Below, piece by piece: positions 3,690 to 26,987 of a DNA stretch of 64,000 bases. A model generated the notes under the pieces. The model ran no database searches and was not told where the DNA came from. It saw only the letters and a list, made by a program, of their open reading frames with translations. Source of the DNA: Deltaproteobacteria bacterium (GTDB lineage Bacteria; UBA10199; SPLOWO2-01-44-7); the NCBI GenBank assembly GCA_030648035.1, contig JAUSII010000035.1:15611-79610 (forward strand). Reading direction: 5' to 3'. The translations under genes and the position numbers were made by a program. Each line of letters begins with the position of its first letter. The stretch's first letter is position 1.

Positions 3690-3712
3690 GGGTGTTTGAA
3701 TGAGAAGGTTTG

Positions 3713-3822: not shown

Positions 3823-3834
3823 TGACCCGTATCA
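3823..3834. promoter_or_regulatory. One-mismatch FNR/Crp-type box TGACccgtATCA
   Basis: 62 nt upstream of the decaheme cytochrome ATG. Same CCGT spacer as the box at 2323. Confidence 0.3.
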
Positions 3835-3896
3835 GCTTGTCGGATGATTGCCTTTGTGATACTTCCCCCCTCGAAATCAATCGTAAGGAGAAATTT

Positions 3897-4844: not shown

Positions 4845-4853
4845 GAGGGGAAT

Positions 4854-9784: not shown

Positions 9785-10206
9785 GGATTGTTTGGATGTA
9801 TCCATTCGCCGCCCGATCCCTTTTGGGCTTGCGTAAAATCTTCCATGCTGGAGTAGGCGGAAAGATATCCACCCATGGGAGAGGGGATGTTTTTACTTTT
9901 GAGAATAAACGCCTTTTCCAACCGGATCCATTTTTCGGGATGCAAAAAATCAGTCACCCAGCGGCTCTGAATCTCTTTCGAATGCTGAACAGCCCATTCA
10001 AACAGACATTCGATGGAATCAAAGAAATGGGGTTTTCCCTTGAGAGAAAGAATCTGTGTTTTGAAACGCATCTCTACAATCCCCATCTTGCAATGTTCAC
10101 AGAGGTGTTCGTTTGCCCGGATGTCGACCGGTTGTGAGCGGCCGCAGGCGGTAAACAGAAAGACCATCAAGAACAAGAGGATCGATTTTTTTAAAATGAG
10201 TTTCAC
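9781..10206 (-). CDS. nosL: NosL copper-chaperone lipoprotein
   Basis: Lipobox LFTAC, CEHCKM metal motif and SPMGG motif. The GTG start overlaps the nosB stop (GTGA). Confidence 0.7.
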   Translation of the reverse strand: MKLILKKSILLFLMVFLFTACGRSQPVDIRANEHLCEHCKMGIVEMRFKTQILSLKGKPHFFDSIECLFEWAVQHSKEIQSRWVTDFLHPEKWIRLEKAFILKSKNIPSPMGGYLSAYSSMEDFTQAQKGSGGEWIHPNNP

Positions 10207-10790
10207 GCCCTCTTTTTAAATCTTTCTGAATAAAGAATGTAGGATAAAATTATCCCGATGAGTAGAAGCGAAATTCCTCCGATATGGGGCCAACTGCAAG
10301 ATTCGATATTGAGGATCTGTTTGCATCCGAGGATGGGCGGCTGGTAGGCCATTCCTGGAATCGAGATGGGGGCTTCCGGGTTGAGATTGTGACCGTAGTT
10401 GTATTCCCATCTCCAAAAATCATAAAAACCGGCGGTGCCGACCAGGGCCAGATTAATCAATCCTGCCCAGACCAGAAAACGGCGCGGCCACAAAAAAGTC
10501 ACGAGAGCCCCTGCAATCATATAACCCAGGAGATAGGGCATGAACTGCAGTTCGGGTATCGATTCCTCCACAATCGGGGCCATGCCGATGTAGTGGTTCA
10601 GAATGTTGATGTTCTTGAGATCGAATTGCGCATGTCCGGTAATTTTGTTGACCCAGATATGCATTCCCATCCCCTCCGGATATTGCGGAGCGACGAGGCG
10701 AATAGACCAGAGCGGAGTAAAACAGGCCGCGATCAGTAATAGACCGACCAAAAGGACAAGAAACCGGTTTGGGGTCGAAAGTTTTTTCAC
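10203..10790 (-). CDS. nosB: NosB-like integral membrane protein (the gene found directly downstream of clade II nosZ)
   Basis: Several hydrophobic helices (FLVLLVGLLLIAACF, YLLGYMIAGALVTFLW, LINLALVGTAGFY, ISLLLIGIILSYILY). A GTG at 10790 overlaps the nosZ stop codon (10790-10792) by 1 nt; the track ATG at 10853 would overlap nosZ by 64 nt. Confidence 0.5.
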   Translation of the reverse strand: MKKLSTPNRFLVLLVGLLLIAACFTPLWSIRLVAPQYPEGMGMHIWVNKITGHAQFDLKNINILNHYIGMAPIVEESIPELQFMPYLLGYMIAGALVTFLWPRRFLVWAGLINLALVGTAGFYDFWRWEYNYGHNLNPEAPISIPGMAYQPPILGCKQILNIESCSWPHIGGISLLLIGIILSYILYSERFKKRA

Positions 10791-12697
10791 TATGGAGTCA
10801 CGCGCAAATATTGTTGCATCTCCTGATGCAAGGCCGAACAAAAATCGGTGCAATAAAAGGGGAAAATGCCCACTTTTTTTGCATCAAACCGGAGTGTCTT
10901 GGTTTGTCCCGGCATGAGAAGAATATTGGGTGTGTTGGCCCCCTGAACGGCAAAACCGTGATCGATATCGTAATCCTGTTCGAGATTGGTGATGTGAAAA
11001 AAGACAGTGTCGCCTACTTTTGCTTCCACCACATCGGGTTTGAAGTGCGAACGGATGGAGGTCATGTAGACATCGACCACATTTCCGTTACGAACCACTT
11101 TGGCATCATCCTCTTTTTTGGTGGCGAAAACATTTTGATTCTCTTCCAGAGAATAAATTTTCTGTGCCTTCTCAGCCAGCAAGCTGGCTGGAACGCCTTG
11201 TGCATAGTGCGGTTCTCCAACCATCGGAAAATCGAGAAGCATCTTCATTTTGGAGCCGCTGATGTCGTACAATTGGGCGCTTTGGCTGACTGCGGGACCG
11301 ACAGGAAGATAGCGATCCTTCGTGATTTTATTCAGAGAGAGCATGTATTTCGGAAAGGGTTTGGCTGAATCACCGCCGGCAATACTCAAATGGCCAATGC
11401 TGTAATAGGCTGGAACGCGATCAACCACTTCCCAGCTTCCCAGTTTCCATTTGATGATTTCTGAGCTGATGAAACACGAGGTGTAGGCATAACCTTTGCC
11501 GTCAAATTCGGTATGCAATGGTCCCAGGCACGGTTTTTGGACTTCACCGGCTAGAGTCGATTCATATTTTAATACCGGTATTCCGTCGATTTCTTTGATG
11601 ACATTGGTTTTATCCTCAATGGCTTTAAGCATTTTTTTAAAAGAGTGGACTGGAATAACAGTGGCCAGCTTGCCGCCGCCCACGATGTATTCGCCAGTCG
11701 GGTCGACATCGGAGCCGTGCGGGCTTTTGGGTGTGGGTAAATAATAGAGAACGCCGGAACAATCTTTGGGATCCAGCATTTTTACACCGCTTCTTTTTTC
11801 GGAGACGGTCGCATTATTTTCCGGATTGAAGTTGTTGTAGTAGGTGCCAGAAAAATCTTTGGCCTTGCCCTGGTCGATGCACTGCTTGGCCCGCACCCAG
11901 TTGAAGGCGGCAATGTAATCTTTGTCGTTCTTGGAGGCTTCAATCTCGAGCATTTTATAAGCCTGTTCGGTATTGTAGGTGCTGAAAAAACACCAGTCGT
12001 GCGACGGCCCTTTGCCGCAATGGGCGATGTCGTAATCAAAGCCAGGAACTATAATCTGTCCGTCAATGGACAAACGACCTGTTTGGGGATCGACTTTAAC
12101 CAATGTGATCGTTCCCTTGAAGGCCCCTTTTTCGGCATCCGCAACGGGAATGTCTCTTTGTGGAATGGGGACAGAAAAACGGGTGGTCGCCATCAGATAT
12201 TCGGTATTTTCAGTCAAAAAGGGAGAGGCATGATTGCCGGCGCTGTTGGGGATCTCGATAATTTCAGCCGTCTCGAATGTTTTGAGATCGAGGCGCGCAA
12301 TGCGCGGCGTGTTATTGCCGTTTATGAAAAGCCATCGACCATCTTGTACCCCTTTGGTGAGAGAGACTTCCGGGTGGTGGGCATCGTCCCACGGGACAAA
12401 ACCGTGGGAGGTCATCAGCATGTTTTTGGATTCTTCATCATACCCATAGCCGCTTTCCGGAAACTGTGAAAACACGGGGATGATTTTAAGCAACCGGGCC
12501 GAGGGGATTCCATAAACAGAAACTTGTCCGCTGTAGCCGCCTGACATAAACCAGTAGAATTCGTCTTTTTCGCCGGGTGCCACATAAACTCTTTGTGCGG
12601 CATCGCCCGCCAGAACATTTACAGCCTTGTTTCCCTTGCCGCAGGCAAGGCCTGTGGCTAAAGGCAAAATCAACAAAAAACCAAAAATGTTTTTCAT
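10790..12697 (-). CDS. nosZ: Nitrous-oxide reductase NosZ, Sec-type (clade II)
   Basis: 635 aa. The N-terminal signal has no twin-arginine (MKNIFGFLLILPLATGLACG). C-terminal CuA motif CTDFCSALHQEM follows DIDHGFAVQG. Followed by nosB-L-D-F-Y. Confidence 0.9.
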   Translation of the reverse strand: MKNIFGFLLILPLATGLACGKGNKAVNVLAGDAAQRVYVAPGEKDEFYWFMSGGYSGQVSVYGIPSARLLKIIPVFSQFPESGYGYDEESKNMLMTSHGFVPWDDAHHPEVSLTKGVQDGRWLFINGNNTPRIARLDLKTFETAEIIEIPNSAGNHASPFLTENTEYLMATTRFSVPIPQRDIPVADAEKGAFKGTITLVKVDPQTGRLSIDGQIIVPGFDYDIAHCGKGPSHDWCFFSTYNTEQAYKMLEIEASKNDKDYIAAFNWVRAKQCIDQGKAKDFSGTYYNNFNPENNATVSEKRSGVKMLDPKDCSGVLYYLPTPKSPHGSDVDPTGEYIVGGGKLATVIPVHSFKKMLKAIEDKTNVIKEIDGIPVLKYESTLAGEVQKPCLGPLHTEFDGKGYAYTSCFISSEIIKWKLGSWEVVDRVPAYYSIGHLSIAGGDSAKPFPKYMLSLNKITKDRYLPVGPAVSQSAQLYDISGSKMKMLLDFPMVGEPHYAQGVPASLLAEKAQKIYSLEENQNVFATKKEDDAKVVRNGNVVDVYMTSIRSHFKPDVVEAKVGDTVFFHITNLEQDYDIDHGFAVQGANTPNILLMPGQTKTLRFDAKKVGIFPFYCTDFCSALHQEMQQYLRVTP

Positions 12698-13150: not shown

Positions 13151-13204
13151 GGTGTTTCTCCTTTTGTGGTCTGCGAATAAGATGAATTTTAACAAGGAGC
13201 AACA

Positions 13205-13216
13205 TGATCTACATCA
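13205..13216. promoter_or_regulatory. FNR/Dnr/NnrR-type palindrome TGATctacATCA
   Basis: Exact palindromic arms with a...t flanks, centred in the 119-nt divergent gap. It lies about 54 nt from both the cyt c/nosZ operon start (13150) and the nnrS start (13270). Confidence 0.6.
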
Positions 13217-13269
13217 TATTGAAGAGCTTGGAAATGATATTTAAACAGGGAAAGCTTCTGGAGAAATAT

Positions 13270-14430
13270 ATGACTACCGCCAATCGTCAGAGTGATCCAT
13301 ATCAGTGGTTTTTTCCCTTGGGAATTTTTTTTGGTTTGGCAGGGGTCGTGTTGTGGGTGCTATTTGGATTCAAGGTTTTGCCGATGTATCCAACACTTCC
13401 CCATGCCGAAATCATGACAGGCGGTTTTTTGACGGCGATCGTTACCGGTTTTTTAATGACAGCCGTTCCCCGTTTTACCGGAACGCGTTCGGCCGGTCCG
13501 ATCGAAAAATGGACTCTTTTGGTCGTATTTTTGCTGATGTTTGTTACGGCTTTTCGTCCGGATCGTATCTGGTTTCATCTCGGAGGTTTTCTGGCTTTTT
13601 GTCTTTTGATCCGTTTCGGAATTTCCAGACTTCGTGTTTCGGTTTTTAAGCCAGGCCCCCCTTTCGTGCTGGTCGCTTTTGGTATTTTTTCAGGCGTTTG
13701 TTCCTTTGGCCTTTTGTTAGCCAAGGATTTTTATCCCCTGCCTTCGACTTTTGTTTATTTAGCCAGAATGCTTTTGTATTATGGCCTCTTTTTCTTTCCA
13801 GCGTTGGGTGTGGGAACACAGCTCATCCCATCCATTCTAGGGGTGGCGGTTCCCGTTGCAAAACCGATCGGAGCGACGCCGTTTCATCAACCTATCGGTC
13901 GCATGAAGGTCTATTTTTTATTTTTAGTTTATGGCGCGGGGTTATTTTTCTCCTTTGTTCTGGAGGCGCTCGGATTTTTTTTCACCGCACGTTTATTAAG
14001 GGCCGTTCTTGTCAGTGCCATTTTATTCATTCATTGGCATTTGCATCGCAGACCGAAGCCGATTGTGTTGTTAACGGCTGCTCTTTGGCTGAGTGGGTGG
14101 ATGATGTTTGTTGGAGTCTGGGTGGTGGCTTTGTGGCGCGGATTTGCTGTGCATGGAGCGCACATTCTTTTTATTGGCAGTCTCTCTGTTATGATTTTTT
14201 CAGTGATGACCCGCGTTGTTATTTCCCATGGGGGACATAACCCTCAAGTGGAACGAAATTCCAAAGCATTACTGGCGATGCTGATTTTTTTTATGGTTGC
14301 CCTTGTGACCCGTGTGAGTGCGCCGCTGGTTCCAAACTATTATTTTCATTTGGCTTATGCCGCCTTTTTTTGGATTGCGGGAGTGGTTTGCTGGATGATA
14401 ATATTTTTTCCGAAAATAATCCGAAAATAA
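13270..14430 (+). CDS. nnrS: NnrS-family membrane protein (NO-stress-associated heme-copper protein)
   Basis: About 386-aa polytopic protein with HAEIMTGGFLTAIVTGFLMTAVPRFTG, matching the NnrS signature (H-x-H/E-M...GFLLTA-P-W/F-TG). Located beside nos genes. Confidence 0.7.
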   Translation: MTTANRQSDPYQWFFPLGIFFGLAGVVLWVLFGFKVLPMYPTLPHAEIMTGGFLTAIVTGFLMTAVPRFTGTRSAGPIEKWTLLVVFLLMFVTAFRPDRIWFHLGGFLAFCLLIRFGISRLRVSVFKPGPPFVLVAFGIFSGVCSFGLLLAKDFYPLPSTFVYLARMLLYYGLFFFPALGVGTQLIPSILGVAVPVAKPIGATPFHQPIGRMKVYFLFLVYGAGLFFSFVLEALGFFFTARLLRAVLVSAILFIHWHLHRRPKPIVLLTAALWLSGWMMFVGVWVVALWRGFAVHGAHILFIGSLSVMIFSVMTRVVISHGGHNPQVERNSKALLAMLIFFMVALVTRVSAPLVPNYYFHLAYAAFFWIAGVVCWMIIFFPKIIRK

Positions 14431-14470: not shown

Positions 14471-15181
14471 ATGGTTAAAGCACCCCCCGTTCATTGTCAG
14501 ACCTGTCAGAGTCGCGGAGAGGGTATTTTCTGCGATTTAAGCGCGGAACATCTCAAAGAGCTTGATGCGGCAAAGACGACAAACCATTACAAGCCGCATC
14601 AGGTTATTTTTCATGAGGGGAATCAACCTCAGGGGCTGCATTGTGTTTCCTCCGGAAAGATAAAAATCTACAAGATGGATGCACAGGGGCACCAACAGAT
14701 TGTCCGTCTGGCGGGGCCGGGTGACGTGATGGGGTATCGTTGCCTGCTCACGAATGAAGGTTATTCCGCTACGGCGGAAACATTGGAAGAGGCGACAATC
14801 TGCTTTATAAATAAAGAGACTTTTTTGCATATCATCGAAACACATCCTGTAACCGCTTTTCATATCCTTTCCTCTCTGGCCAAAGATCTGGGGCGCGCTG
14901 AAAATCAGACCATGAACATGGTTCATAAAAATATCAGGGAGAGGTTGGCGGAGTTATTTCTCGTTTTCCACAAAAAATATGGAAAAAAGACAAGTCAGGG
15001 GATTGAATTGGACATCCTTCTTTCTCGCGAAGAGATGGCAGAGCTCATCGGCACCACTCAGGAATCGGTTATTCGTCTGATCAGCGAATTTAAACAGGAC
15101 GGCCTGATTGCGGTGGATGGCCGGCATATCACCCTTTTGAATATCAAAAAAATAATGGACCTCGCCAACCTTCCCGATTAA
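14471..15181 (+). CDS. Crp/Fnr-family transcription regulator, paralog 1
   Basis: cNMP-binding-type beta-roll and C-terminal HTH (REEMAELIGTTQESVIRLISEF). N-terminal Cys cluster C9-x2-C12-x8-C21 plus conserved internal Cys (GYRCLL), as in Fe-S-sensing FNR proteins. Confidence 0.8.
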   Translation: MVKAPPVHCQTCQSRGEGIFCDLSAEHLKELDAAKTTNHYKPHQVIFHEGNQPQGLHCVSSGKIKIYKMDAQGHQQIVRLAGPGDVMGYRCLLTNEGYSATAETLEEATICFINKETFLHIIETHPVTAFHILSSLAKDLGRAENQTMNMVHKNIRERLAELFLVFHKKYGKKTSQGIELDILLSREEMAELIGTTQESVIRLISEFKQDGLIAVDGRHITLLNIKKIMDLANLPD

Positions 15182-16484: not shown

Positions 16485-17162
16485 TTATTTCAGCTCATGA
16501 GGCTTGTGGCAACTGATGCACTCCGTATCTTTTGGAATAGGCGGGTGCAATTTTTCTGTCTGAATTCTGTCGTGGCAGGTTTTACAAGAAGCCGTTGTTG
16601 GTTTCAAGTCTTCTCCCTTCGCCAGAAAGTTGTGGCATTGCAGACAGTGGATAAAAGACATTTTGCTGTTCCCTTCCATTTTATCTGGATGACATCCGGC
16701 GCAACTGTCGACCGGGCGAACGAACTCGTGAAGCCCTTTCATGTGACATTCCAGGCAATCGATGCCAGCTTTTTCAAAATGGACTTTGTGTCCGGCGGTG
16801 TTTCCGACCAGTTTCCACTGTGTGTCCTGGCTCAGGTGGCATTGTGCGCAGACTTTTTGATCGAGATTGGGATGGTGCACGACAGACTTTGGTTGTTCGG
16901 TGATATACATCCAGACTTGGTGAAGACTCTGCCATTTGGTCTGTTTGTGGCATTCATGACAGCTCACCATGTGATGGGGGCTCTCCTGCCATTTTTTGAA
17001 GGGTTCATCCATGGTATGACACGATTGGCAAAAACGGGGATCATGTTCCATGTAATCGTAGCCTTTATAGGCACCCACGGCGAAGAGGGCTACAAGGACA
17101 ATAACCGCGATCAATATTATTTTAAGTTTTTTGGAAATCTTTCTGATTTCAGTTCGCATCAT
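16485..17162 (-). CDS. Membrane-anchored octaheme c-type cytochrome (NapC/NirT/NrfH-like candidate quinol dehydrogenase)
   Basis: One N-terminal TM helix (IILIAVIVLVALFAVGAY) and eight CxxCH motifs (CQSCH, CHECH, CAQCH, CLECH, CAGCH, CLQCH, CKTCH, CISCH). ATG 17162 avoids a 56-nt overlap with hemY. Confidence 0.7.
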   Translation of the reverse strand: MMRTEIRKISKKLKIILIAVIVLVALFAVGAYKGYDYMEHDPRFCQSCHTMDEPFKKWQESPHHMVSCHECHKQTKWQSLHQVWMYITEQPKSVVHHPNLDQKVCAQCHLSQDTQWKLVGNTAGHKVHFEKAGIDCLECHMKGLHEFVRPVDSCAGCHPDKMEGNSKMSFIHCLQCHNFLAKGEDLKPTTASCKTCHDRIQTEKLHPPIPKDTECISCHKPHELK

Positions 17163-18486
17163 AAATATTTTGGACTTCTTGAACAGCGTTTCGCATCGTA
17201 TCATTAATCGAGATGCCAGAAAAGTAATTTCCGGTTAGATAGAGTCCTTTTGATAATTGCAGTTGTTCTTGAATCCCTCTCAACTTATTTTTATGTCCCA
17301 GAGTATATTGAGGAATGGCATTGGAAATTTTGGTGACGACGGAATCGGTCACCTTTAAGGCGCGACCCAGGAGAGGGTGGAGCTCCTCCACCACTTTTTG
17401 TAAAATGGCCTCTTCTGAAAGCATCATGGCTGAAGGATTTTTGGCGCCTCCTACAAAACAGGTTAATAACACAGATTGATCATCGGGACAGCGGCTGTCA
17501 AAGATAGTAGAGGACCAGAGGCAGCCCAACAAAAGATTGCTTTCTTTGGTTCCGGTGAGAAAGCCAAAACCGTTGAGGGGGCGTTTTAGTGTCGAGCGGT
17601 CGACCACGAGATGTACGACACTGACCGAAACGTAAGGAATGCTTTTTAAAACAATCGATAAGTTGGGATCCACTGTTTCCAAAAGGGAGGCTGCGGCATA
17701 GGCGGGTAATGCCAGCAGTATGGAAGAGGCCTCTTCTTCATGGGTTTTATCGGCCTGCTTCCATTTCACCCGCCAAGTCGATTTTTCTTTTATCAGCCGG
17801 ATATCCTGGCAATCGAGAAGGCATTGTTCCCGAACCTCTTCGTAGAGACCGTTGACCAATGTTTGTAAACCGTCATGGAAAGAAGAGAGGGTCTGTCCCT
17901 TGGAAAAAAGACGGGCCTTTGAGAGGGCTTTGAAAAGGCTTCCATATTCTTGTTCCCATTTTGCAATATTCGGCGCAATGGCCGGCATGCTCAAGTTTGC
18001 CGCATTTCCGGCGTAGATGCCGTGGATCATGGGACCCACCAGATGGAGAGCTTCTTTACCGAGGCGTCTTGTTACAAATTGGGCAACGCTCTCTTCTTCG
18101 GAAGAGTTTGCGGGAATAAGGGGCTCCATGAGCAGTCTCATTTTTCCCATGGGGCTAAGCAGGGATGTTTTAAAAAAATCAAAACCACTTTTGGGAACGC
18201 GTCTCAATTTGCGTTTGTGGAGGATGTAGCGGTTTTTGGCCGCCGGCTTTGAAGGGGTTTTTTGTTTTTGAATGTCCAATTCCCGGATGTGGTCCGCCAG
18301 CGTTTCCTGATTTTCCAAAAAACTGTTGGGCCCCATTTCCAACAGAAATCCATGATGTCGAAGGCTTTGAATGCGGCCCCCCCAACGGGAAGATTTTTCG
18401 AGCAAAAGAAAGGGTTTTCCCGCCTTTTTGAGTTGATAAGAAGCGGTCAGACCGGCGATGCCGGCGCCCAACACGATTGTTTTCAT
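17149..18486 (-). CDS. hemY: FAD-dependent protoporphyrinogen/coproporphyrinogen III oxidase (HemY type)
   Basis: N-terminal dinucleotide fold VLGAGIAGLTASYQL...LLEKSSRWGGRI. Size of 445 aa and overall pattern fit the HemY family. Confidence 0.75.
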   Translation of the reverse strand: MKTIVLGAGIAGLTASYQLKKAGKPFLLLEKSSRWGGRIQSLRHHGFLLEMGPNSFLENQETLADHIRELDIQKQKTPSKPAAKNRYILHKRKLRRVPKSGFDFFKTSLLSPMGKMRLLMEPLIPANSSEEESVAQFVTRRLGKEALHLVGPMIHGIYAGNAANLSMPAIAPNIAKWEQEYGSLFKALSKARLFSKGQTLSSFHDGLQTLVNGLYEEVREQCLLDCQDIRLIKEKSTWRVKWKQADKTHEEEASSILLALPAYAAASLLETVDPNLSIVLKSIPYVSVSVVHLVVDRSTLKRPLNGFGFLTGTKESNLLLGCLWSSTIFDSRCPDDQSVLLTCFVGGAKNPSAMMLSEEAILQKVVEELHPLLGRALKVTDSVVTKISNAIPQYTLGHKNKLRGIQEQLQLSKGLYLTGNYFSGISINDTMRNAVQEVQNIYDAN

Positions 18487-18594: not shown

Positions 18595-21084
18595 ATGCCT
18601 ATATCAGGTCTGTCTAAGCGGTTTTCCTTTTCATTTTTATTGTGCCTCTTTCTTTTTTTTGTTGTGGGTTGCGGTCAGTCCAAGCCCTTGGGGTCCGGCT
18701 CCGTAGCGCAGGGTGATGCCAATCAGAACATATCCCCGGGTGGTAGTATTCCTATTGCTTCCAGCATTTTTCCCCATTCAGACAATTGGGCTGAACCGGC
18801 GCAACATGGAGGTTGGGTCAATCGGGATGGAGCCGAAACCTGTCTTAAGTGCCATGTCGAAATGGGCCCTGCAGATGGAGCCCCTTCTTGCAGTTCCTGC
18901 CACGCCTTGTTCCCGCATAAAGAAAACTGGGTGAAGAAGGAAAATCACGGGGAGTTTGTAACAAAAAATGGCCAAGCCTCTTGTGCCACCCAGTGCCATG
19001 GCACTGATTTGAAAGGGGGGCTGTCAGGAATCTCCTGCAGTTTGTGTCACACGATCTTTCCCCATTCCAGAACCTGGAAAAATGCGGAAGAGCATGGACC
19101 GGTAGCGAAAGAGGGCGGTAAAAATTTGTGCAAAGGGTGTCATGGCAATGATTTCCGTCGTGAAGTGAACGGTAAAAATTGTTTTAGCTGTCATGCTCTC
19201 TATCCGCATGAAGCTGGCTGGTTTGAGTTGGGCAAACACGGTGAATATGTGGTGCAAAATGGCACAGCTGGCTGTGCCACCCAATGTCACGGCCCCAATT
19301 TACAAGGAGGACTGTCGGGGAGGGCCTGTGATAGTTGTCATGTCATGATGCCGCATGCGGCCGGTTGGGGAACGTTTGAAGGACACGCCCGGCATATTGC
19401 GACAACCCTGGATCACAACCTGGTGACCTGCCAACGCTGTCATGGAGAAGATTATAGTCGCGAGATAAATGGCAAAAATTGTTTTAGCTGTCATGCCGGA
19501 TATCCTCATACCTCCAATTGGGGAGAGGGGAGTCAGCATGGGCCCATGGCTTATGGTTTGGGCAAACAGGGTTGTGCCACTTCCAATTGTCATGGAACCC
19601 GTTTTGAAGGCAATGTCCAGACCGGAGCCCCTTCTTGCACTGGATCCTGTCATGGGGTCACACCGCATGCCGATTATCCACATGAGTTGTCGCCAAAATG
19701 GATGACATTAGAAACCAGAAGAGAATCTTTGAGAGACGAAGCGTTTCATGGCGATCGATTTATTCGGGAACTTCAGCGGGGTGATGCGGCTCCGTGCAGT
19801 GCTTGCCATGGTGTCAATTATGACCGACCGGTCGGAGGCGCTCAATGTACCGTTTGCCATTCGCAAGGTGTAAGCCATAGGACTGTCGACGGTGTGGCCT
19901 GGAATTCTGGTACGGGTCATGGAAAGTTTTTTTCGAGTCAATTTAATGCAGTCAATCCCTCTTCCACTTGTCGCGCTTGCCATGGTAGCGCGATCGATTT
20001 TAATGCAACCCAAACGAGAGATGAGTTGCAAAGGCAATCCTTATGTTACACTTGTCATCTGGCGTATCCGCACATTGCCTTCCGCAACGACGGAAATAAT
20101 CATGCATGGGAACCGGTGGTGGCCAATGAATGTGGTCCACGCAATGTTACCAATTGGGGACATATTTTTGCTTTGATGAACGGCCCTCTTTTTTCGGATA
20201 CCCGCGCTACTTGCGGTGGAGGTGCTGGTGGCAGTTGCCATGCAGATGGTTTGAGAGCCTATCGAACCGGTAATGCAGCGGAGCCATGTGCTCTCTGCCA
20301 TAACGTGGCGACTACTTTGCCGCCACCCGATTTGCCGGAGTGCGAAGTCCCTCCTTCGGATCAACAGATTGCCGGGGCACCCATGGTGATCAGAACCTGG
20401 CCTCCAAGTGGAGAGCAAAATGCGGGTGTTTCTGGAACCGTCGTTGTGTATTTCAATGAGGCGATGTTCAGTCCCAGCGTCAAGCAGGCAGGGACAGTGG
20501 TTTTGCGTAAGGTGAGTGATGATTCCATAGTCCCGACAAGTCTGACTTGTCCCGACAATAATTGGTGCAAAACGACAACGCTACGACCCCTCAATCCTCT
20601 TCAAAACAACACAAACTATGAAATTCGTGTGACCACGGTTGCCAAAGATTGGGGTGGAACGCCGATGGCCGCAGAATATCGCGGGACTTTCAAAACGGTT
20701 CCTCTCGACGTCACTCGGCCGACGGTTGTCTCCACGGTTCCGGTCTCCGGTGCTGTTGGCATATCCGCCGACCTGCCGCAAATTGATGTTTTTTTTAGTG
20801 AATCGCTACGCCCTATCGGCCATCTTGGTTTCACCATAAAAGTGGTGAGAGTGTTCGATCCCAATCCGGAGGGGGGCGTTCTTAATGTGAGAGAGGGTTT
20901 TCTGGATTGTGTGACAGCCGACTGTCGGCAAACAAGATTTTCCATACCGGCACCACGCAGAGGATACCCACACCGGTTTGTTATTGGTGAAGCCTATACC
21001 GTGACCATTTTTGCCAGCCAGATTAAAGATCTGATGGGTAATGCGATGGCGGCAGATTATCACTGGACATTTACAACGCGTTAG
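18595..21084 (+). CDS. Giant lipoprotein multiheme c-type cytochrome with two C-terminal Ig-like domains
   Basis: Lipobox FVVGC. Thirteen CxxCH motifs plus CX3CH (three), CX4CH (one) and one CX7CH variant. A repeated CxxCH-xx-(F/Y/M)PH module. The C-terminal 240 aa are beta-rich and SbsA/Big-like (APMVIRTWPPSG..., RPTVVSTVPVSG...). Confidence 0.8.
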   Translation: MPISGLSKRFSFSFLLCLFLFFVVGCGQSKPLGSGSVAQGDANQNISPGGSIPIASSIFPHSDNWAEPAQHGGWVNRDGAETCLKCHVEMGPADGAPSCSSCHALFPHKENWVKKENHGEFVTKNGQASCATQCHGTDLKGGLSGISCSLCHTIFPHSRTWKNAEEHGPVAKEGGKNLCKGCHGNDFRREVNGKNCFSCHALYPHEAGWFELGKHGEYVVQNGTAGCATQCHGPNLQGGLSGRACDSCHVMMPHAAGWGTFEGHARHIATTLDHNLVTCQRCHGEDYSREINGKNCFSCHAGYPHTSNWGEGSQHGPMAYGLGKQGCATSNCHGTRFEGNVQTGAPSCTGSCHGVTPHADYPHELSPKWMTLETRRESLRDEAFHGDRFIRELQRGDAAPCSACHGVNYDRPVGGAQCTVCHSQGVSHRTVDGVAWNSGTGHGKFFSSQFNAVNPSSTCRACHGSAIDFNATQTRDELQRQSLCYTCHLAYPHIAFRNDGNNHAWEPVVANECGPRNVTNWGHIFALMNGPLFSDTRATCGGGAGGSCHADGLRAYRTGNAAEPCALCHNVATTLPPPDLPECEVPPSDQQIAGAPMVIRTWPPSGEQNAGVSGTVVVYFNEAMFSPSVKQAGTVVLRKVSDDSIVPTSLTCPDNNWCKTTTLRPLNPLQNNTNYEIRVTTVAKDWGGTPMAAEYRGTFKTVPLDVTRPTVVSTVPVSGAVGISADLPQIDVFFSESLRPIGHLGFTIKVVRVFDPNPEGGVLNVREGFLDCVTADCRQTRFSIPAPRRGYPHRFVIGEAYTVTIFASQIKDLMGNAMAADYHWTFTTR

Positions 21085-21115: not shown

Positions 21116-22381
21116 TTGAAAAATGGACCTGTTTTTTTGAAGGGATGTTTTTTTCTCCTTTTTTTATTTTTTTCTCCTCTAAGCCTCCATGCGGCGGATT
21201 ATAGCGTTGATCTTTTGTCCATTGGTCAGGTTCGCAAAGCTCCCATCACCAACCAACAACAGATTCCTGAAAATGGTTATGTAGGTGGCACAGCCCATTT
21301 TGAAAAATGGAATTTTTCAAATCAGACCAACATGCGTTTCTTTCGGGATTTCGACAGCAAACTGGATGAATATGATCTCTACCAGACCGTTTTTCATCTG
21401 GAACCTGCAAAGGCATTGACACTTGATTTGGGAAGACAGTTCGTTAATCAGGGATTCATGGTGGAAATTTTGGATGGGATTCAGGCGACTGTCATTCCGG
21501 AGGAGCATGTTGCTGTCACTGGTTTTTCAGGTATTCCCCGGAGCATGGAATTTGGACAATTCAGAAAAAATGATCTTTTATTGACGGGCTTGTCGGTCGG
21601 TTTGAAAAATGTGGCCAGGACAAAGGCCTCCGTTCATGGCGCCTGGCGCTCCAACAATCTACATATCATGGATCTGAACAGCAATGATCAGGTGCAGGTG
21701 GGTGGAAATTTTTCACACCAGTTTGCGGTTAATATGATGCCGATGTTTTATAGTTTGGCGGAGTATGATACCACCGGAAAAGTTTTTAATACTGCCACGG
21801 TCGGGTTTGACCTCTACCCCTCCTCACGTTTTTCAATAAATGGTGAGGGAAATTATTACAACTTAAGCCGGGATCTTGACCTTCAAACCGTTCAAGCCAC
21901 TTATTCCAAGGGGCCCACGTTGAATGGGCGTTTTGCTTTCACTTGGAAAGTCGTTCCGCAGTTTCTCAATCTGGTTCCCAGTTACACTTTCAACCGGATG
22001 GGAGTCACGGCAACGAATGATTTTAAAAATGCCCATCAAGTCGATGCCGCTCTTCAACTGTTGCTGGAAGACGTGGGTCTTCGTGTGGAGCCGGCGTATT
22101 ATTATGCCAAAAGTTTTGGCGGAAGTTTGAAAGGGGCGAGGCTCGGTCTCCATAAAACATTCAATGACCGGTTGTATGCCGATTTGACTTTCGACTTTAC
22201 AGCCTACAAAAAAATTACCAACGACAATGACAACGCCTACTCCACCATTTTTTGGACCGGTTATGAGGTGGCGAAGGGGCTGACTCTTTCCGGAGGAATG
22301 GAATACAACAAGAACAATCTGTTTGATAAAGATATCAGGGGCTCTTTCAGACTCGATTATCATCTGAATCGTGGGAGTTAA
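21116..22381 (+). CDS. Predicted outer-membrane beta-barrel (porin partner of the cytochrome cluster)
   Basis: Signal peptide ending LSLHA-AD. Alternating hydrophobic beta-strand periodicity, rich in Tyr/Gly/Asn/Phe. TTG start with a GGGGAGGGA SD. No family recognised by eye. Confidence 0.45.
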   Translation: MKNGPVFLKGCFFLLFLFFSPLSLHAADYSVDLLSIGQVRKAPITNQQQIPENGYVGGTAHFEKWNFSNQTNMRFFRDFDSKLDEYDLYQTVFHLEPAKALTLDLGRQFVNQGFMVEILDGIQATVIPEEHVAVTGFSGIPRSMEFGQFRKNDLLLTGLSVGLKNVARTKASVHGAWRSNNLHIMDLNSNDQVQVGGNFSHQFAVNMMPMFYSLAEYDTTGKVFNTATVGFDLYPSSRFSINGEGNYYNLSRDLDLQTVQATYSKGPTLNGRFAFTWKVVPQFLNLVPSYTFNRMGVTATNDFKNAHQVDAALQLLLEDVGLRVEPAYYYAKSFGGSLKGARLGLHKTFNDRLYADLTFDFTAYKKITNDNDNAYSTIFWTGYEVAKGLTLSGGMEYNKNNLFDKDIRGSFRLDYHLNRGS

Positions 22382-22382: not shown

Positions 22383-22955
22383 ATGAGAAAGAATTTATTG
22401 AAATCGGGATTTCTTCTGCTGATGGCGCTTTTTCTTTTGTATGCCGGAAGCGTGCAATCCAAAGCCAAAAAACAGACACATCCCTTTGATCTGTTCGATC
22501 ATGAAATGCACACCGGCATTTTTGAGGGGGTCAGTTTTTCGTGCGAAAACTGCCATGCCGATCCCGAATCGTTTCAGGATCGCAAAAAGATAAACCGGTT
22601 GGGATGTCATATGTGCCATAACAATCCCAATCCACCGGTGCCGGGCACGCAGGATTGCAAAGTTTGTCATGCCAGTGGGTTTCCAAAACCGGAAAGTCAT
22701 AAAACCGCATGGATTGCCAAACATCAGACCTACGCCAAACAGGATCCGCAATATTGCACCCAGTGTCATTCCAATGCGATGTTCTGTGTCGATTGTCATC
22801 AGCGTCGTGACACGATCCAGACCAAGATGCACCAGAGGAATTTTTTATTTTATCACTCGATCGAAGCGAGGGCCAACCCGCGCAAGTGTGACGAATGTCA
22901 TAGTATCAACTATTGTGAGCAGTGCCATTCTGGAAAGGGGAATTCCAAAAAATGA
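22383..22955 (+). CDS. Periplasmic heptaheme c-type cytochrome
   Basis: Signal peptide and seven CxxCH motifs (CENCH, CHMCH, CKVCH, CTQCH, CVDCH, CDECH, CEQCH) in 190 aa. The ATG lies 1 nt after the barrel gene's stop. Confidence 0.8.
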   Translation: MRKNLLKSGFLLLMALFLLYAGSVQSKAKKQTHPFDLFDHEMHTGIFEGVSFSCENCHADPESFQDRKKINRLGCHMCHNNPNPPVPGTQDCKVCHASGFPKPESHKTAWIAKHQTYAKQDPQYCTQCHSNAMFCVDCHQRRDTIQTKMHQRNFLFYHSIEARANPRKCDECHSINYCEQCHSGKGNSKK

Positions 22956-23260
22956 AGGGGCTGTTTTTAATCATATTGTTTTGTTCTTTAGCCGTGGTTA
23001 CTAGTTGCGGCGGGAGCGCCTTCAATGAAGGAGAAAATTTCGGCAATCTTCTCGACACCACTGGCGGTTTGACCTTAAGCCAATCCGAGCATGAAATTGG
23101 CTGGGGGCAGGCGGATTGTTTGCCTTGTCATAATCTGGAGAATATTCATCTGGTCAACCGGACGGGAACCGCCATTGATATCGTCGCCATTCACAATCAG
23201 GCCTTGAGCGGGGGCATTGCCAGCTGTGCCAGCTGTCACGGCAATAATGGGGCTCCGTAA
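22952..23260 (+). CDS. Small diheme c-type cytochrome lipoprotein
   Basis: Lipobox VVTSC, with CLPCH and CASCH. ATGA overlap with the heptaheme gene's stop. Confidence 0.7.
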   Translation: MKGLFLIILFCSLAVVTSCGGSAFNEGENFGNLLDTTGGLTLSQSEHEIGWGQADCLPCHNLENIHLVNRTGTAIDIVAIHNQALSGGIASCASCHGNNGAP

Positions 23261-23280: not shown

Positions 23281-23970
23281 ATGAAGAAAATAACGGTCAT
23301 TGGGAGTATTTGTCTGGTTTTTCTGTTTTCTTCCGATCGGGCTTGGGGAAAAAACAGCTGTATTTCTTGCCATCAGGAGCAGACCCAGTCCAAGCGCCTC
23401 GAACATAATTATGCCGACTGGAAAAAATCGATTCATGCCTCCAAGGGGATAGGATGTGATGCCTGTCATGGTGGTCATTCCGACACCTTCAATCCGGTCA
23501 ATGCTCATGAGGGGGTGTTGTCCTCCCGCGATAAAAATTCACCCATCTATTTTCAGAATATTCCCAAAACCTGCGGGCAATGTCATGTGGAGGAGCTGAA
23601 GGAATTTCAAAAAAGCGTTCACTATAAATTGCTCGAGGATTCCGGCAAAGGTCCAAATTGTCTGACTTGTCATGGGTCGATGGCAACCACCATTCTGGCC
23701 CACTCGCAACTCGATCAGACCTGTTCTCTTTGCCACGGCAAACCGATTCAGGCAGCCAAGGCGTTGAGCCTCATACAGTCGATTAAAAACTCACTGGATG
23801 TGCTGCAGAAAAAAAAGGGCCAATATGAAAATAAAGAAAAGATCACCGAATTTTGGGCGCGTTACAGGGAAATTCAAAAAAAATGGCACTCTTTTGATAT
23901 TGCCGCTTTGACAAATAAGTCCAAAGAGTTGTTGAAAGAGATCAAGGAGTTTGAAAAAAAATGCAAATAG
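23281..23970 (+). CDS. Pentaheme c-type cytochrome
   Basis: Signal peptide and five CxxCH motifs (CISCH, CDACH, CGQCH, CLTCH, CSLCH). Helical, Lys/Glu-rich C-terminal tail. Confidence 0.8.
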   Translation: MKKITVIGSICLVFLFSSDRAWGKNSCISCHQEQTQSKRLEHNYADWKKSIHASKGIGCDACHGGHSDTFNPVNAHEGVLSSRDKNSPIYFQNIPKTCGQCHVEELKEFQKSVHYKLLEDSGKGPNCLTCHGSMATTILAHSQLDQTCSLCHGKPIQAAKALSLIQSIKNSLDVLQKKKGQYENKEKITEFWARYREIQKKWHSFDIAALTNKSKELLKEIKEFEKKCK

Positions 23971-24443
23971 ATCGGCGCGATTTTTTGAAATATTCCATTT
24001 GGGGTTTGGGCCTTCTGGCAGGGGCCTCCCTCTTTGTTCCGGGAGCCGGATATTTTTTGTCGCCGGCATGGAAGGAGATGACGGAAGACTGGATTTTGTT
24101 GGGAGATGCCGACAAAATTCCGGTGGGAGAGCCAACCAAGCTGGAGTTCGTGCAACGGCGCAAAGATGGATGGATGACGGTGGAAAAAAAACGTTCAGCG
24201 TGGATTTTAACTCAAGACGGAAAATCTTTTACCGCTTTTGATCCGCATTGCACGCATTTGGGATGCCCTTACCGATGGGATGTCTCCAAACAGGAATTTC
24301 TTTGCCCGTGCCACAATGCCGTGTTCGGTATCAATGGCAATGTCATTTCCGGTCCGCCACCCAGGCCCCTGGATCGCTACGCGACACGCATGGAAGATGG
24401 AAAGTTGTGGCTACTCCCCGTGCTGGAAAAGGAAAAAACTTAA
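23961..24443 (+). CDS. Rieske [2Fe-2S] protein (Tat-exported) of a bc/b6f-type complex
   Basis: Twin-arginine signal MQIDRRDFLK. Rieske boxes CTHLGC and CPCHNAVF. Overlaps the pentaheme gene by 10 nt. Confidence 0.9.
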   Translation: MQIDRRDFLKYSIWGLGLLAGASLFVPGAGYFLSPAWKEMTEDWILLGDADKIPVGEPTKLEFVQRRKDGWMTVEKKRSAWILTQDGKSFTAFDPHCTHLGCPYRWDVSKQEFLCPCHNAVFGINGNVISGPPPRPLDRYATRMEDGKLWLLPVLEKEKT

Positions 24444-24447: not shown

Positions 24448-26055
24448 ATGCATCGTCTTTCAAAATGGGTTCAGGAACGGTTGGGGTGGAAAGATATTCG
24501 TGAGACTCTGCTCGATCGGAAAATCCCCAGTCCCGGCCGTTGGGGATGGCTCTACACACTCGGTTCGGCCACTCTCGCCGTTTTTATTTTGCAGGTTGTT
24601 ACCGGCACGCTACTCGGGATGAATTATTCCCCCTCGCCGGATCATGCCTACGATTCCATCCGCTACATCATGACGCAGGTGCCCATGGGGAGTCTCATCC
24701 GGGGACTCCACAAATGGGGAGCAACCGCCATGATCGTGCTGTTGCTTCTGCACATGCTTCGCATTTATGTAATGGCCTCTTACAAGCGCCCCCGGGAAAT
24801 AACCTGGATGGTCGGTATCATTCTCCTGTTGGTCGGTTTTGGTTTGGGGTTCACCGGCTATCTTCTCCCGTGGGATCAGAAAGCCTATTGGGCAACCGCT
24901 GTGGGGGCCAACATTGCCGCGCAAGCCCCTTTTTTTGGGCCCATGATTGCCAAGATTTTAAAGGGAGGCGAAGAATTGGGAGCCCTCACACTGACCCGCT
25001 TCTATGGGCTTCATGTTCTGGTTTTGCCGATCACGATGGGGCTCCTGATTGGAGCGCATCTTTTTCTGGTGATATACCACGGTATTTCGGCGCCGCCCTC
25101 TCGCAAGGTGCCTCCGCCCGACTATCAGGATCTTAAGGCAAAAGGAAAACCATTTTATCCGCACAGCATTTTCAAAGATGTGGTGATGGTGCTGATTGTC
25201 TTTGCCATCATTTTTTTTCTGGCCCTTCATTATGGCGCAGGACTTGAAGATCCGGTCAATCCAAATGATACAAGCTACAATCCAAGGCCGGAATGGTATT
25301 TTCTTTTCCTGTTTCAAATGTTGAAACTGTTTCCGGGCAAGTGGGAGCCGATTGCCGCTGTGGTTATCCCGACGCTTATTGTCGCTTTTTTGTTTTTTCT
25401 TCCGCTTCTGGATAGAAGAGAAGACAGGCATCCACTTGCAAGACCCTTTTGGATGGGCATTGGAAGTGCGGCGCTTTTTTTTGTGATTTGGCTTTCATAT
25501 CAGGGGTGGAAGTCGCCTCTGCTCAATCCGCAAATTGAAAAAAATCCGATGGTTTTGCAGGGAAAAAAACTCTATGACGATCTCCGCTGTTCCTATTGCC
25601 ACTCCATGAAGGGAGAAGGGGGAACTATCGGCCCCGATCTCATCCAAACCGTTTCTACCCGGTCAGATGAGTGGATCATGGAACATTTTAAAAAACCACG
25701 GGCGAAAGTGGCACAGTCGATGATGCCGGAGCTCAATCTTTTGGACGAGGAGATACAGGCTCTCATTGCCTATTTGCGGGAAGTCGGAGGCGGTGGCGCT
25801 TCGGTGACATCGGCCATGAAAATTTATGTTGAAAATTGCCAGGACTGTCATCGGTTGGGAAAAAGGGGGGAAGATGTTGGGCCCAACTTAAGTCAGATTG
25901 GAAGTTTTCGCGAGGCCAGCTGGATTCAAAATTATATTTCCAATCCGAAGCTTCTCAATCCCGATTCCGTCATGCCGGAATTTGGAACCAGTCTGTCCAA
26001 AGAAGAAATTGAAAATATGGCCCGGTTTCTAGCCGGTCAAAAAGGGATGCCCTAA
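24448..26055 (+). CDS. Cytochrome b (b6 plus subunit-IV-like) fused to a C-terminal diheme cytochrome c
   Basis: Heme-ligand helices (GLHKWGATAMIVLLLLHMLRIY), GYLLPWDQ and the Qo-site PEWYFLFLFQ motif. C-terminal CSYCH and CQDCH class-I domains. ATG 24448 lies 4 nt after the Rieske stop. Confidence 0.85.
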   Translation: MHRLSKWVQERLGWKDIRETLLDRKIPSPGRWGWLYTLGSATLAVFILQVVTGTLLGMNYSPSPDHAYDSIRYIMTQVPMGSLIRGLHKWGATAMIVLLLLHMLRIYVMASYKRPREITWMVGIILLLVGFGLGFTGYLLPWDQKAYWATAVGANIAAQAPFFGPMIAKILKGGEELGALTLTRFYGLHVLVLPITMGLLIGAHLFLVIYHGISAPPSRKVPPPDYQDLKAKGKPFYPHSIFKDVVMVLIVFAIIFFLALHYGAGLEDPVNPNDTSYNPRPEWYFLFLFQMLKLFPGKWEPIAAVVIPTLIVAFLFFLPLLDRREDRHPLARPFWMGIGSAALFFVIWLSYQGWKSPLLNPQIEKNPMVLQGKKLYDDLRCSYCHSMKGEGGTIGPDLIQTVSTRSDEWIMEHFKKPRAKVAQSMMPELNLLDEEIQALIAYLREVGGGGASVTSAMKIYVENCQDCHRLGKRGEDVGPNLSQIGSFREASWIQNYISNPKLLNPDSVMPEFGTSLSKEEIENMARFLAGQKGMP

Positions 26056-26760
26056 TCAGCCTGGTGTCTGTTTCACGACATAAATTCCATCGGCAATTTC
26101 ACGATCGATCGCCACTTCTGTTTCATCCACCTTTAAAACAAAAGTAGGACGTTTCTGCAAAAGATGGAGGGATGCGCCTGGCAAGACGCCAAGACCTGAA
26201 AGTCTCTCCAATAGGGCGTGATATTTTGGTGCGATAAAAATAATGCGATAATTGTCGCCGGTCTCTTCCTGACTTAAGGGTGTTACCAAGGGGCGAACCG
26301 CATTGACAAACGATTTGCAACAATCTCCCGGCGGGATCGGTCTGCCGTGCGGGCAGGTGGGGGGATGCCCCAAAAAAGAACAGATCCCCTCGACGGCTTC
26401 GGGGGTTAAAACTTTTTCGTGTTCCATGCGGCAGGCTTGAGCGCGGACCGCCTCTTCTGAAAGATTGAAGACCACCGCAAAGAGTCTCTCGGCCAATCGG
26501 TTTCTGCGAATAAGAGAGCTGGCCCGTTCTTCTCCTTTTGTGGAAAGTTTTACAAAAACACCATGGGGAAGTACCAGATTTTCCTGCCCCAATTCGAGGG
26601 TTGCCTTGGATACCTCTTGGGGATTCACTTTGGATAGGCAGTGGTCGAGCTCCTCTTTTCCGTTTTCACGGTTGAGCCATGCGCGGACCAGAATATGGTC
26701 TTTGATTTCGTCAATCCCCAATGCTTCGTCGTTATCGTGGTGATGATCGTGATTGTTCAT
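26056..26760 (-). CDS. DtxR/MntR-family metal-dependent regulator fused to a C-terminal FeoA/SH3-like domain
   Basis: RRNRLAERLF...MEHE...FLGHPPTCPHGRPIP (DtxR metal/dimerisation signature). His-rich N-terminus MNNHDHHHD. C-terminal small beta-domain (VLPGASLHLLQKRPTFVLKVDETEVAIDREIADGIYV). ATGA overlap with the upstream small ORF. Confidence 0.65.
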   Translation of the reverse strand: MNNHDHHHDNDEALGIDEIKDHILVRAWLNRENGKEELDHCLSKVNPQEVSKATLELGQENLVLPHGVFVKLSTKGEERASSLIRRNRLAERLFAVVFNLSEEAVRAQACRMEHEKVLTPEAVEGICSFLGHPPTCPHGRPIPPGDCCKSFVNAVRPLVTPLSQEETGDNYRIIFIAPKYHALLERLSGLGVLPGASLHLLQKRPTFVLKVDETEVAIDREIADGIYVVKQTPG

Positions 26761-26987
26761 GATTGTTTCCTTTTGAATAATTTTTGAAACCATTTCACTA
26801 TTTTGGAATCTCCGACAAATTCATAGCGGCAGTTGGGGCACCGGATCATATTGCATCCGCCGAACATCGCGCATCCGCCACAGGCGGCCGCACCCGAATC
26901 AAAAACAAAACCGCACAAGGGGCAATTTTGTGGATGAGCCTCCTTCGCCGGAGCCCTGGAGGCACTGGGGAGTTGCAGGTCGGCCAT
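26757..26987 (-). CDS. Small Cys-rich (zinc-ribbon-like) protein in the feo operon
   Basis: 76 aa with CPLCG...CGGC...C..IRCPNC and an amphipathic basic tail. Wedged between feoB and the regulator, with coupled junctions. Confidence 0.5.
   Translation of the reverse strand: MADLQLPSASRAPAKEAHPQNCPLCGFVFDSGAAACGGCAMFGGCNMIRCPNCRYEFVGDSKIVKWFQKLFKRKQS

Follow-up and report, generated by a model that had tools for sequence, protein, structure and literature searches.

An 829-residue lipoprotein cytochrome with tandem diheme modules, encoded in a candidate porin-cytochrome operon

What kind of protein is specified by a gene in which predicted heme sites and diverged repeats fill about 515 codons, and on which side of which membrane would it work? 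The question is raised by a stretch of 64,000 nucleotides (nt) from a Deltaproteobacteria bacterium (GTDB lineage UBA10199, SPLOWO2-01-44-7; assembly GCA_030648035.1, contig JAUSII010000035.1, positions 15,611 to 79,610 of the forward strand), which was analysed as a whole and is called the window below. An original prediction had described the open reading frame (ORF) at 18595..21084 on the + strand as the gene of a giant cytochrome built from exact 300-nt tandem units. The ORF is real, and its product of 829 amino acids (aa) is identical to one annotated in a public assembly. It is, as had been proposed, a multiheme c-type cytochrome made from a repeated module with an invariant Pro-His and a W...HG after the second heme motif. 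On balance, we favour the reading that this protein is the outer-face, mineral-facing cytochrome of a porin-cytochrome (Pcc-like) conduit.

Heme sites and repeat architecture of the lipoprotein

The gene contains the following features, given in window coordinates, in which AF2 stands for AlphaFold2, pLDDT for its predicted local distance difference test score and Ig for immunoglobulin:

18595..21084, + strand: gene of the 829-aa lipoprotein cytochrome with 18 heme sites and two Ig-like domains (ORF; Pfam Big_5, Cytochrome_C7 and Cytochrom_c3_2)
18595..18672, + strand: signal peptide with lipobox (…FFVVG-C26), read from the sequence; Cys26 is the predicted lipidated N-terminus and Gly the +2 residue
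18757..18840, + strand: heme-less leading half unit (FPH61-x3-W-x5-H71G) with two conserved His ahead of the first heme pair; P60, H61, W65, H71 and G72 are nearly invariant
18841..19572, + strand: five well-conserved diheme units, residues 83-129, 130-178, 179-226, 227-278 and 279-326 (unit alignment and statistics; AF2 helices)
18877..18892, + strand: first copy of an exact 16-mer, encoding GAPSC ahead of the second heme motif of unit 83
19174..19196, + strand: first copy of an exact 23-mer, encoding KNCFSCHA of unit 179, inside an 81-nt repeat of 75% identity
19474..19496, + strand: second copy of the 23-mer, in unit 279, 300 nt downstream of the first
19573..20349, + strand: four degenerate or stretched diheme units, residues 327-400, 401-458, 459-539 and 540-585 (CX4CH at 327, CX3CH at 348, Cx7CH at 540-549)
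19624..19639, + strand: second copy of the 16-mer, encoding GAPSC of unit 327
20377..20697, + strand: first Ig-like domain (Big_5; Pfam stretch 595-701; AF2 beta-sandwich with pLDDT of about 90 or higher; Foldseek)
20707..21081, + strand: second Ig-like domain (second Big_5 stretch; AF2; Foldseek)

The protein has 18 Cys-His heme sites, namely 13 CxxCH, three CX3CH, one CX4CH and one Cx7CH, which use 36 of its 44 cysteines and form nine pairs at residues 83/99, 130/148, 179/196, 227/245, 279/296, 327/348, 401/418, 459/484 and 540/565. With 18 predicted hemes in ~515 residues, the density is one heme per ~29 residues. All six CxxCH-xx-[FYM]PH strings quoted in the original prediction were recovered (residues 99, 148, 196, 245, 296 and 484), and so were the variant motifs that it listed, CATQCH at 130 and 227 and CTGSCH at 348 (CX3CH) and CATSNCH at 327 (CX4CH). 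Absent from its list is a putative 18th site, the conserved Cx7CH sequence CGGGAGGSCH at residues 540-549 (window 20212-20241; consensus TCGGxxxGSCH), the spacer of which is unusually long and rich in glycine.

Alignment of the units yields a diheme basic unit of ~48-49 aa, C-x2-4-CHG-x11-12-CxxCH-xx-[FYM]PH-x3-W-x5-HG-x~9, which is present in nine copies, the last of which (540-585) is devoid of PH and HG. Units i and i+2 are the most similar (scores of 131 and 159 versus 87-107 for adjacent units), and an A/B alternation of CxxCHG with CATQCHG joins unit pairs into a four-heme super-repeat of ~97-100 aa. The internal periodicity is highly significant in the protein: super-units are 39-52% identical, with z = 20-34 against shuffles, and none of 300 shuffles reached the observed score. 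In the AF2 model, helices start at residues 68, 115, 164, 212, 261 and 312, where pLDDT is ~85-90, and their period of 47-51 residues independently reproduces that of the repeat. The 100-aa unit proposed originally survives as the A/B pair, with a real period of ~97-100 aa, whereas the primary unit is half as long, at ~48-49 aa.

At the DNA level, the 23-mer at 19174 and 19474 and the 16-mer at 18877 and 19624 each occur exactly twice, as stated in the original prediction, with no matches in shuffled sequence. The "exact 300-nt tandem units", in contrast, were not found: the three super-units are 288-366 nt long and only 57-65% identical in DNA, and the best and longest direct repeat is an 81-nt one of 75% identity at a spacing of 300 nt. 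Tandem Repeats Finder reported no tandem repeat within the gene; the DNA repeat is too diverged. The observation of a repeat is real in its essentials and had been mis-described, as the DNA repeats are diverged and the unit has 48 aa rather than 100. "Giant" is a relative term, since relatives of the protein reach 43 CH sites and multiheme cytochromes with 85 heme-binding sites have been published (He et al. 2017, PMC5566968).

One local peculiarity lies at residues 348-363 (window 19636-19686), where CTGSCH is followed by GVTPHADYPH in this protein only. Orthologues read C-x2(-4)-CHADFPH at the residue-348 site, with a cysteine spacing that varies between CX2, CX3 and CX4, and a 5-residue insertion in the present protein appears to have duplicated the PH.

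Ligand candidates, family membership and history of the array

Conservation was read from two alignments, one of 50 relatives and one of 7 orthologues. In both, the Cys and His of the heme motifs are invariant or nearly so, and 18 non-motif His are equally conserved (residues 61, 71, 108, 118, 157, 167, 205, 215, 254, 264, 305, 315, 363, 385, 428, 442, 493 and 523). They constitute nine PH/HG pairs, each located ahead of one heme-motif pair, an order which explains both the heme-less half unit at the start of the array and the lack of PH/HG in its last unit. The simplest reading is that the two extra His of each module would coordinate, on the distal side, the hemes of the module that follows. 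The proposal that the PH histidine acts as a distal ligand is compatible with 18 heme sites facing 18 conserved non-motif His, and the number and order of these His suggest that all 18 hemes might be low-spin bis-His centres of electron transfer and not catalytic ones. A distal-ligand motif F-(P/x)-H is also present at the start of cytochromes c7 and c3, which offers a lead.

These data bear on the possibility that the protein is a catalytic multiheme reductase or oxidase of soluble nitrogen, sulfur or metal species, in which one or more atypical hemes would form an active site with open coordination. Some enzymes do use atypical motifs for active-site hemes or other special hemes, such as CX15CH in MccA and CxxCK in NrfA, and the Cx7CH site of the present protein is conserved. 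However, a conserved non-motif His is available for each heme site, 18 for 18, CATQCHG recurs in each super-repeat like a structural element instead of occurring once per protein, and no catalytic domain was detected in Pfam and NCBIfam scans, so that we consider a catalytic function distinctly improbable.

With 13 CxxCH and five variant sites in ~515 residues behind a lipoprotein signal, the protein belongs to the multiheme cytochromes. Pfam assigns it only to the generic families Cytochrome_C7 (PF14522; 35.6 bits versus a cut-off of 24.8) and Cytochrom_c3_2 (PF14537; 30.4 versus 25), in addition to Big_5; these scores are summed over the repeats, and single super-units stay below every profile threshold. 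The NCBIfam scan of the protein gave nothing relevant. TIGR01904/PF09698 and PF09699 likewise describe short diheme modules that pair an atypical with a typical motif. The TIGR01904/PF09698 repeat was rejected, as it did not match the whole protein and single units reached at best an E value of 1.5 and 8.6 bits against a cut-off of 27, and PF09699/TIGR01905 (Paired_CXXCH_1) was rejected with best E values of 1.2-6, far under its cut-off. Where PF09698 is found in some distant relatives, it occurs once, as a module of its own at the C-terminus (CSNIYCHG…CGTCHGLPPxGH), and is not the repeated unit.

Sequence searches of the PDB with the family profile, with two unit profiles in different registers and with the leading half unit returned only weak matches driven by heme motifs (HmcA, 9HcA, OmcA, MtrF and NrfB), which consist essentially of paired CxxCH-x12-CxxCH; the part [YF]PH-x3-W-x5-HG had no sequence match in the PDB. 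When an AF2 model of the cytochrome part only (pLDDT 78.8) was compared with the PDB by Foldseek, nothing was found at E <= 0.001, an apo model being a weak basis for such a search, and no claim is made of a fold like that of c3, HmcA, MtrC or OmcZ. The earlier suggestion that the module lies outside known families holds in so far as neither a curated repeat family nor a solved structure, by sequence or by fold, corresponds to it. Literature searches on this lineage or on Big_5-containing cytochromes yielded nothing specific.

Judged by its motifs and profile matches, the module is uncurated and without a solved relative, yet would fall within the broad class III (c3/c7-like) of multiheme cytochromes. 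Cytochromes c3 and c7, HmcA (1z1n), nine-heme 9HcA (1ofw) and the poly-c7 protein GSU1996 likewise have ~27-30 residues per heme, presumably with bis-His ligation. Class III also includes polymers of a small multiheme domain, CX4CH occurs in c3, and the paired CxxCH-x12-CxxCH aligns with segments of 9HcA, HmcA and OmcA. The present protein differs from them in having two hemes per 48 aa, the [YF]PH-x3-W-x5-HG signature, a lipid anchor and Ig-like domains.

The C-terminal 235 residues form two Ig-like domains, as the original prediction had it: Big_5 (PF13205) matches two stretches with E 6.5e-23 and 81.9 bits against a cut-off of 23.6, AF2 models them with pLDDT >90, and Foldseek agrees. With the full-length AF2 model, Foldseek found matches to Ig domains only, among them the tandem Ig-like domains of LdtMt2, S-layer Sap and SbsC (E 5e-10). 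Attachment of the wire, whether to a partner, to the cell surface or to a solid substrate, is probably the task of the Big_5 domains.

A further possibility is that copies of the protein polymerise outside the cell into a cytochrome filament, as OmcS, OmcE and OmcZ do. The heme density is very high, OmcZ too has an atypical motif as well as an Ig-like fold, and a profile matched weakly and in part (E 1e-3, without the PH/HG part) the cytochrome chain 8e5g, which we take to be an archaeal cytochrome filament. Beyond this, no filament cytochrome resembled the protein in sequence (PDB searches) or in fold (Foldseek), the lipid anchor speaks against release, and by count the protein has enough His ligands of its own, so that none from a neighbouring subunit would be needed. 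A filament subunit is the least probable of the identities considered here, and we regard it as very improbable.

Relatives were collected in a word-indexed search, which returned 97 proteins. Almost all of them are unnamed proteins from metagenome-assembled genomes (MAGs), labelled 'Deltaproteobacteria bacterium' (RIFCSP, NC_groundwater and others), Bdellovibrionota FG-2, Nitrospirales or Calditrichaceae. They have 18-43 CH sites each and together contain 593 CxxCHxxxPH modules (Tyr before Pro in 423, Phe in 131) and 64 CATQCHG motifs. When 1.84 billion cluster representatives were scanned exhaustively with HMMER, 632 proteins were detected at E <= 1e-3, 407 at 1e-10 and 165 at 1e-30, and at least two such modules were present in 92 of 109 additional representatives. 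A profile of 81 isolated units, a query too short for this search, gave 25 candidates and no hits against an index of 5.8 billion proteins. Lipobox-like N-termini were seen in 52 of the 97 relatives, many of which are fragments, and the lipobox Cys26 is invariant in the 7 orthologues.

Among relatives, the number of units changes by whole super-units. An orthologue (P0003) has gained one more super-unit as a clean insertion of 98 aa (two diheme modules; alignment columns ~236-333), the second half of which is almost identical to the adjoining unit, and this insertion is direct evidence that the array grows through recent four-heme duplications. The array itself is old, as the units of the present protein are closer to their orthologous units (47-67% identity) than to their sister units (34-54%); on the same figures, recent or concerted repeats were rejected as an explanation of the array. 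Within the orthologues, the patch RE[VI]NGKNCFSCHA, which holds the 23-mer, is common to units 179 and 279 in this protein only, and this suggests a small local gene conversion around it. If the protein is an electron wire, its main value would be that of a very regular, extensible scaffold with two hemes per 48 residues, which reaches 18 to 43 heme sites in relatives. Modules of such regularity could show how a sequence specifies distal ligands and the packing of hemes, and could serve as building blocks of engineered protein wires.

In Bdellovibrionota FG-2 (loci L008/L009), a 762-aa paralogue (P0037) is followed by a B12-binding radical-SAM protein (DUF4080), and a Paired_CXXCH cytochrome and unannotated ORFs lie ~4 kb off.

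A partly conserved operon and its proposed reading as an outer-membrane conduit

From the lipoprotein gene to a cytochrome b gene, seven genes follow each other on the same strand with overlaps or with gaps that do not exceed 52 nt. Terminator-like sites in this row are no commoner than in shuffled sequence, and no convincing internal terminator was found. Downstream of the lipoprotein gene lie:

21137..22381, + strand: 414-aa secreted, heme-free, putative outer-membrane beta-barrel, porin-like (signal …SLHA/ADY, composition, amphipathic beta segments)
22383..22955, + strand: 190-aa periplasmic cytochrome with 7 CxxCH, candidate barrel-inserted partner (syntenic in L001, L003, L004 and L005)
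22952..23260, + strand: 102-aa diheme lipoprotein with lipobox VVTS-C (syntenic in L003, L004 and L005)
23281..23970, + strand: 229-aa secreted pentaheme cytochrome
23961..24443, + strand: Rieske iron-sulfur protein with a Tat-type signal (RRDFLK)
24448..26055, + strand: cytochrome b fused to a diheme cytochrome c, core of a bc-type complex (Pfam Cytochrome_B 2.8e-46 and Cytochrome_CBB3; six transmembrane-like segments)

A search for related loci, built on the 7 orthologues, revealed the adjacency of cytochrome and putative barrel in five MAG loci (L001-L005), the cytochromes of which are 30-45% identical to the present one. The heptaheme cytochrome comes next in four of the five, L002 ending inside the barrel gene, and the 2-heme lipoprotein follows in three. 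The 414-aa protein has a Sec signal, a single Cys that is located inside the signal peptide, no transmembrane (TM) helix and a composition like that of outer-membrane proteins, and its 43 homologues are all unnamed and without a Pfam family. An MtrB-like barrel was considered and rejected, as there was no hit to TIGR03509 or PF11854 and hhalign gave a probability of 1.1% against the MtrB-family protein that is encoded elsewhere in the window. The 7-heme partner is not MtrA-like either, and matches MtrA at its heme motifs only.

This architecture is best compared with that of the Pcc systems, which, according to Shi et al. (2014; PMC4245776), consist of small porins of 18-22 strands and periplasmic cytochromes with 5-14 hemes, together with outer-membrane cytochromes that often bear atypical CX3-15CH motifs, of which CX3-4CH is reported there as confirmed before. 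Such motifs are not as strange as the original prediction had implied. As in OmbB-OmaB-OmcB of Geobacter and its relatives, a gene for a candidate porin-like protein is combined here with genes for a periplasmic multiheme cytochrome and a putative outer-membrane lipoprotein cytochrome, the 7 hemes of the partner lie within the published 5-14, and the atypical motifs of the lipoprotein (three CX3CH, one CX4CH and one Cx7CH) are of the kind that Shi et al. treat as a hallmark of the outer-membrane cytochromes in Pcc systems. The locus differs from these systems in its 18 heme sites, compared with a published range of 1-15 typical motifs in Pcc, in its regular diheme repeat and two Big_5 domains, and in a gene order that runs cytochrome-barrel-periplasmic cytochrome in an operon that continues into Rieske and cytochrome b genes.

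With MtrCAB, MtoAB and PioAB it would share the overall logic of a periplasmic cytochrome in a barrel and a lipoprotein cytochrome at the surface, and it stands outside that group with a candidate barrel of 414 aa, against 721 aa for the MtrB-family protein of the window, and with a partner of 7 hemes and not 10. PCC3 of iron oxidisers (He et al. 2017, PMC5566968) likewise joins a repetitive, heme-dense extracellular cytochrome, with heme sites within every repeat unit, to a porin and a periplasmic cytochrome. PCC3 has porins of up to 42 strands, median heme numbers of 34 (extracellular) and 21 (periplasmic) and a conserved inner-membrane protein of ~300 aa with 5 TM segments (PMC5566968), and neither this porin size nor these heme counts nor the 5-TM protein occurs in the operon inventory, where a Rieske/cytochrome b complex stands in place of the last. 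Non-canonical motifs, construction from repeats and large heme numbers have already been described for this class of protein (PMC4245776, PMC5566968 and PMC11492766), as have multiheme cytochromes built from repeats in general (PMC5566968). What is described here is an uncharacterised variant of known machinery and no new principle; of this machinery, repeat-built cytochromes, atypical motifs and porin-cytochrome clusters are all established parts.

As an outer-membrane lipoprotein that would be cleaved and lipidated at Cys26, the 829-aa protein would act as an electron wire, in which nine tandem diheme modules, often with CATQCHG or a CX4CH as their first motif, would carry 18 covalently bound c-type hemes, including those at the atypical sites, and the [YF]PH...W...HG of each module would supply the distal His for the next heme pair. 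The 7-heme periplasmic cytochrome would be placed in or under the 414-aa putative barrel and would pass electrons between the lipoprotein and periplasmic or inner-membrane carriers, for which the candidates are the pentaheme and diheme cytochromes of the operon and its Rieske/cytochrome b complex. At the other end, the lipoprotein would give electrons to, or take them from, a mineral outside the cell, for which iron is the most plausible candidate; the link to Rieske and cytochrome b genes and the iron-uptake neighbours of the operon would suit Fe(II) oxidation, with Fe(III) reduction as the alternative direction. Surface display, which had been expected earlier, is plausible from the lipobox and the operon.

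Several points weigh against this mineral-facing reading. Bacterial lipoproteins face the periplasm by default, and surface exposure of the present one would rest on analogy with OmcB and MtrC. The linkage to Rieske and cytochrome b genes is atypical of characterised Fe(III)-reducing Pcc systems. The 414-aa protein has no match in Pfam, NCBIfam or the PDB, and its putative barrel fold is proposed from its signal, composition and beta segments; as no solved multiheme structure resembles the cytochrome model in Foldseek, the packing of the hemes is likewise putative. The likeness to Pcc systems is drawn from the published description and from gene order. Finally, the paralogue P0037 adjoins neither a barrel homologue nor a heptaheme homologue, and its neighbourhood indicates that the cytochrome fold serves more than one genomic setting and is not restricted to such conduits.

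The default orientation of lipoproteins also favours a different role, that of a periplasm-facing electron store or wire on the inner leaflet of the outer membrane, comparable to HmcA or the 'nanowire' GSU1996 of Geobacter and not exposed at the surface, which would serve as an electron shuttle or buffer between the Rieske/cytochrome b complex and periplasmic reductases such as clade II NosZ. The operon does contain a bc-type complex, genes for NosZ, NnrS and a cytochrome c/EB_dh protein lie nearby, none of the secretion systems for surface lipoproteins was seen adjoining the operon, and the best, though weak, sequence match in the PDB is the periplasmic 16-heme HmcA (E 3e-5). However, this match is driven by heme motifs and has a high bias, Big_5 is typical of surface proteins and the Foldseek matches include S-layer proteins, and a periplasmic store would leave two conserved close neighbours without a role, namely the secreted beta-rich protein that lacks hemes and the small periplasmic heptaheme cytochrome. 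A periplasmic location of this kind is rather unlikely in our estimation, and the mineral-facing cytochrome of a Pcc-like conduit continues to be preferred.

The lipoprotein family probably marks an unclassified type of conduit in uncultivated subsurface bacteria. A more specific proposal, which we advance tentatively and hold to be possible but doubtful in its entirety, is that the operon represents a distinct, unclassified class of porin-cytochrome conduit of uncultivated groundwater lineages, mostly labelled 'Deltaproteobacteria', with one relative from Bdellovibrionota. This class would combine a family of barrels of ~410 aa that is unrelated to MtrB/PioB, and possibly also to OmbB, with a family-specific heptaheme insert and a family-specific diheme module with domain-swapped ligation, which would gain four hemes per duplication of a super-unit; sharing one operon would tie the conduit firmly to a Rieske/cytochrome b complex, as expected for mineral Fe(II) oxidation feeding reverse electron flow. 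If the conduit reading is right, the operon would encode another independently assembled route for electrons across the outer membrane, from lineages without cultured representatives, and the operon link to Rieske and cytochrome b could clarify how subsurface bacteria couple mineral redox reactions to the quinone pool.

Flanking genes and the rest of the window

Further genes of the window that bear on respiration, iron or heme supply are:

2415-3689, + strand: 424-aa ORF without a family match, ahead of the MtrA/MtrB-type pair
3837-4844, + strand: DmsE/MtrA-family decaheme cytochrome (TIGR03508, E 2.6e-79)
4854-7019, + strand: MtrB/PioB-family barrel of 721 aa (TIGR03509, E 2.7e-64, just below the curated cut-off)
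7809-12697, - strand: nitrous-oxide reductase cluster
7809-8537, - strand: ABC ATPase
8534-9805, - strand: NosD
10790-12697, - strand: clade II (Sec-dependent) NosZ, ~6 kb upstream of the cytochrome
13204-14430: NnrS protein, between the nos cluster and the cytochrome operon
14471-15181: Crp-family regulator, between the nos cluster and the cytochrome operon
16485-17204, - strand: membrane-anchored cytochrome with 8 CxxCH, matching NapC/NirT and NrfH (quinol dehydrogenase-like)
17149-18486: HemY-type protoporphyrinogen oxidase (PPOX), adjoining the cytochrome operon
26056-26793, - strand: DtxR/MntR-like metal-dependent regulator, directly downstream of the operon
26993-28990, - strand: FeoB
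46586-55196: heme-supply and cytochrome maturation cluster, including neighbouring ORFs
46586-47677: HemA
49295-50749: HemN
50753-52648: CcmF
52656-53138: CcmE
53191-53847: CcmC

Besides the PPOX gene, the cytochrome c/EB_dh gene also flanks the operon. On the downstream side, the metal-dependent regulator and FeoB are syntenic with the operon in L003, and a homologue of the regulator lies near the cluster in L005; an iron-related role drawn from these neighbours is circumstantial.

A second, canonical outer-membrane conduit (2415-7019) with an MtrA/MtrB-type pair is located ~12 kb upstream of the cytochrome operon, so that the organism has two or more different putative conduits. The window also contains genes of Ccm system I.

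The public gene call at 16485-17207 (Logan contig), a 236-aa ORF on the + strand without a Pfam hit, is probably on the wrong strand, as the membrane-anchored octaheme-motif cytochrome at 16485-17204 reads from the - strand.

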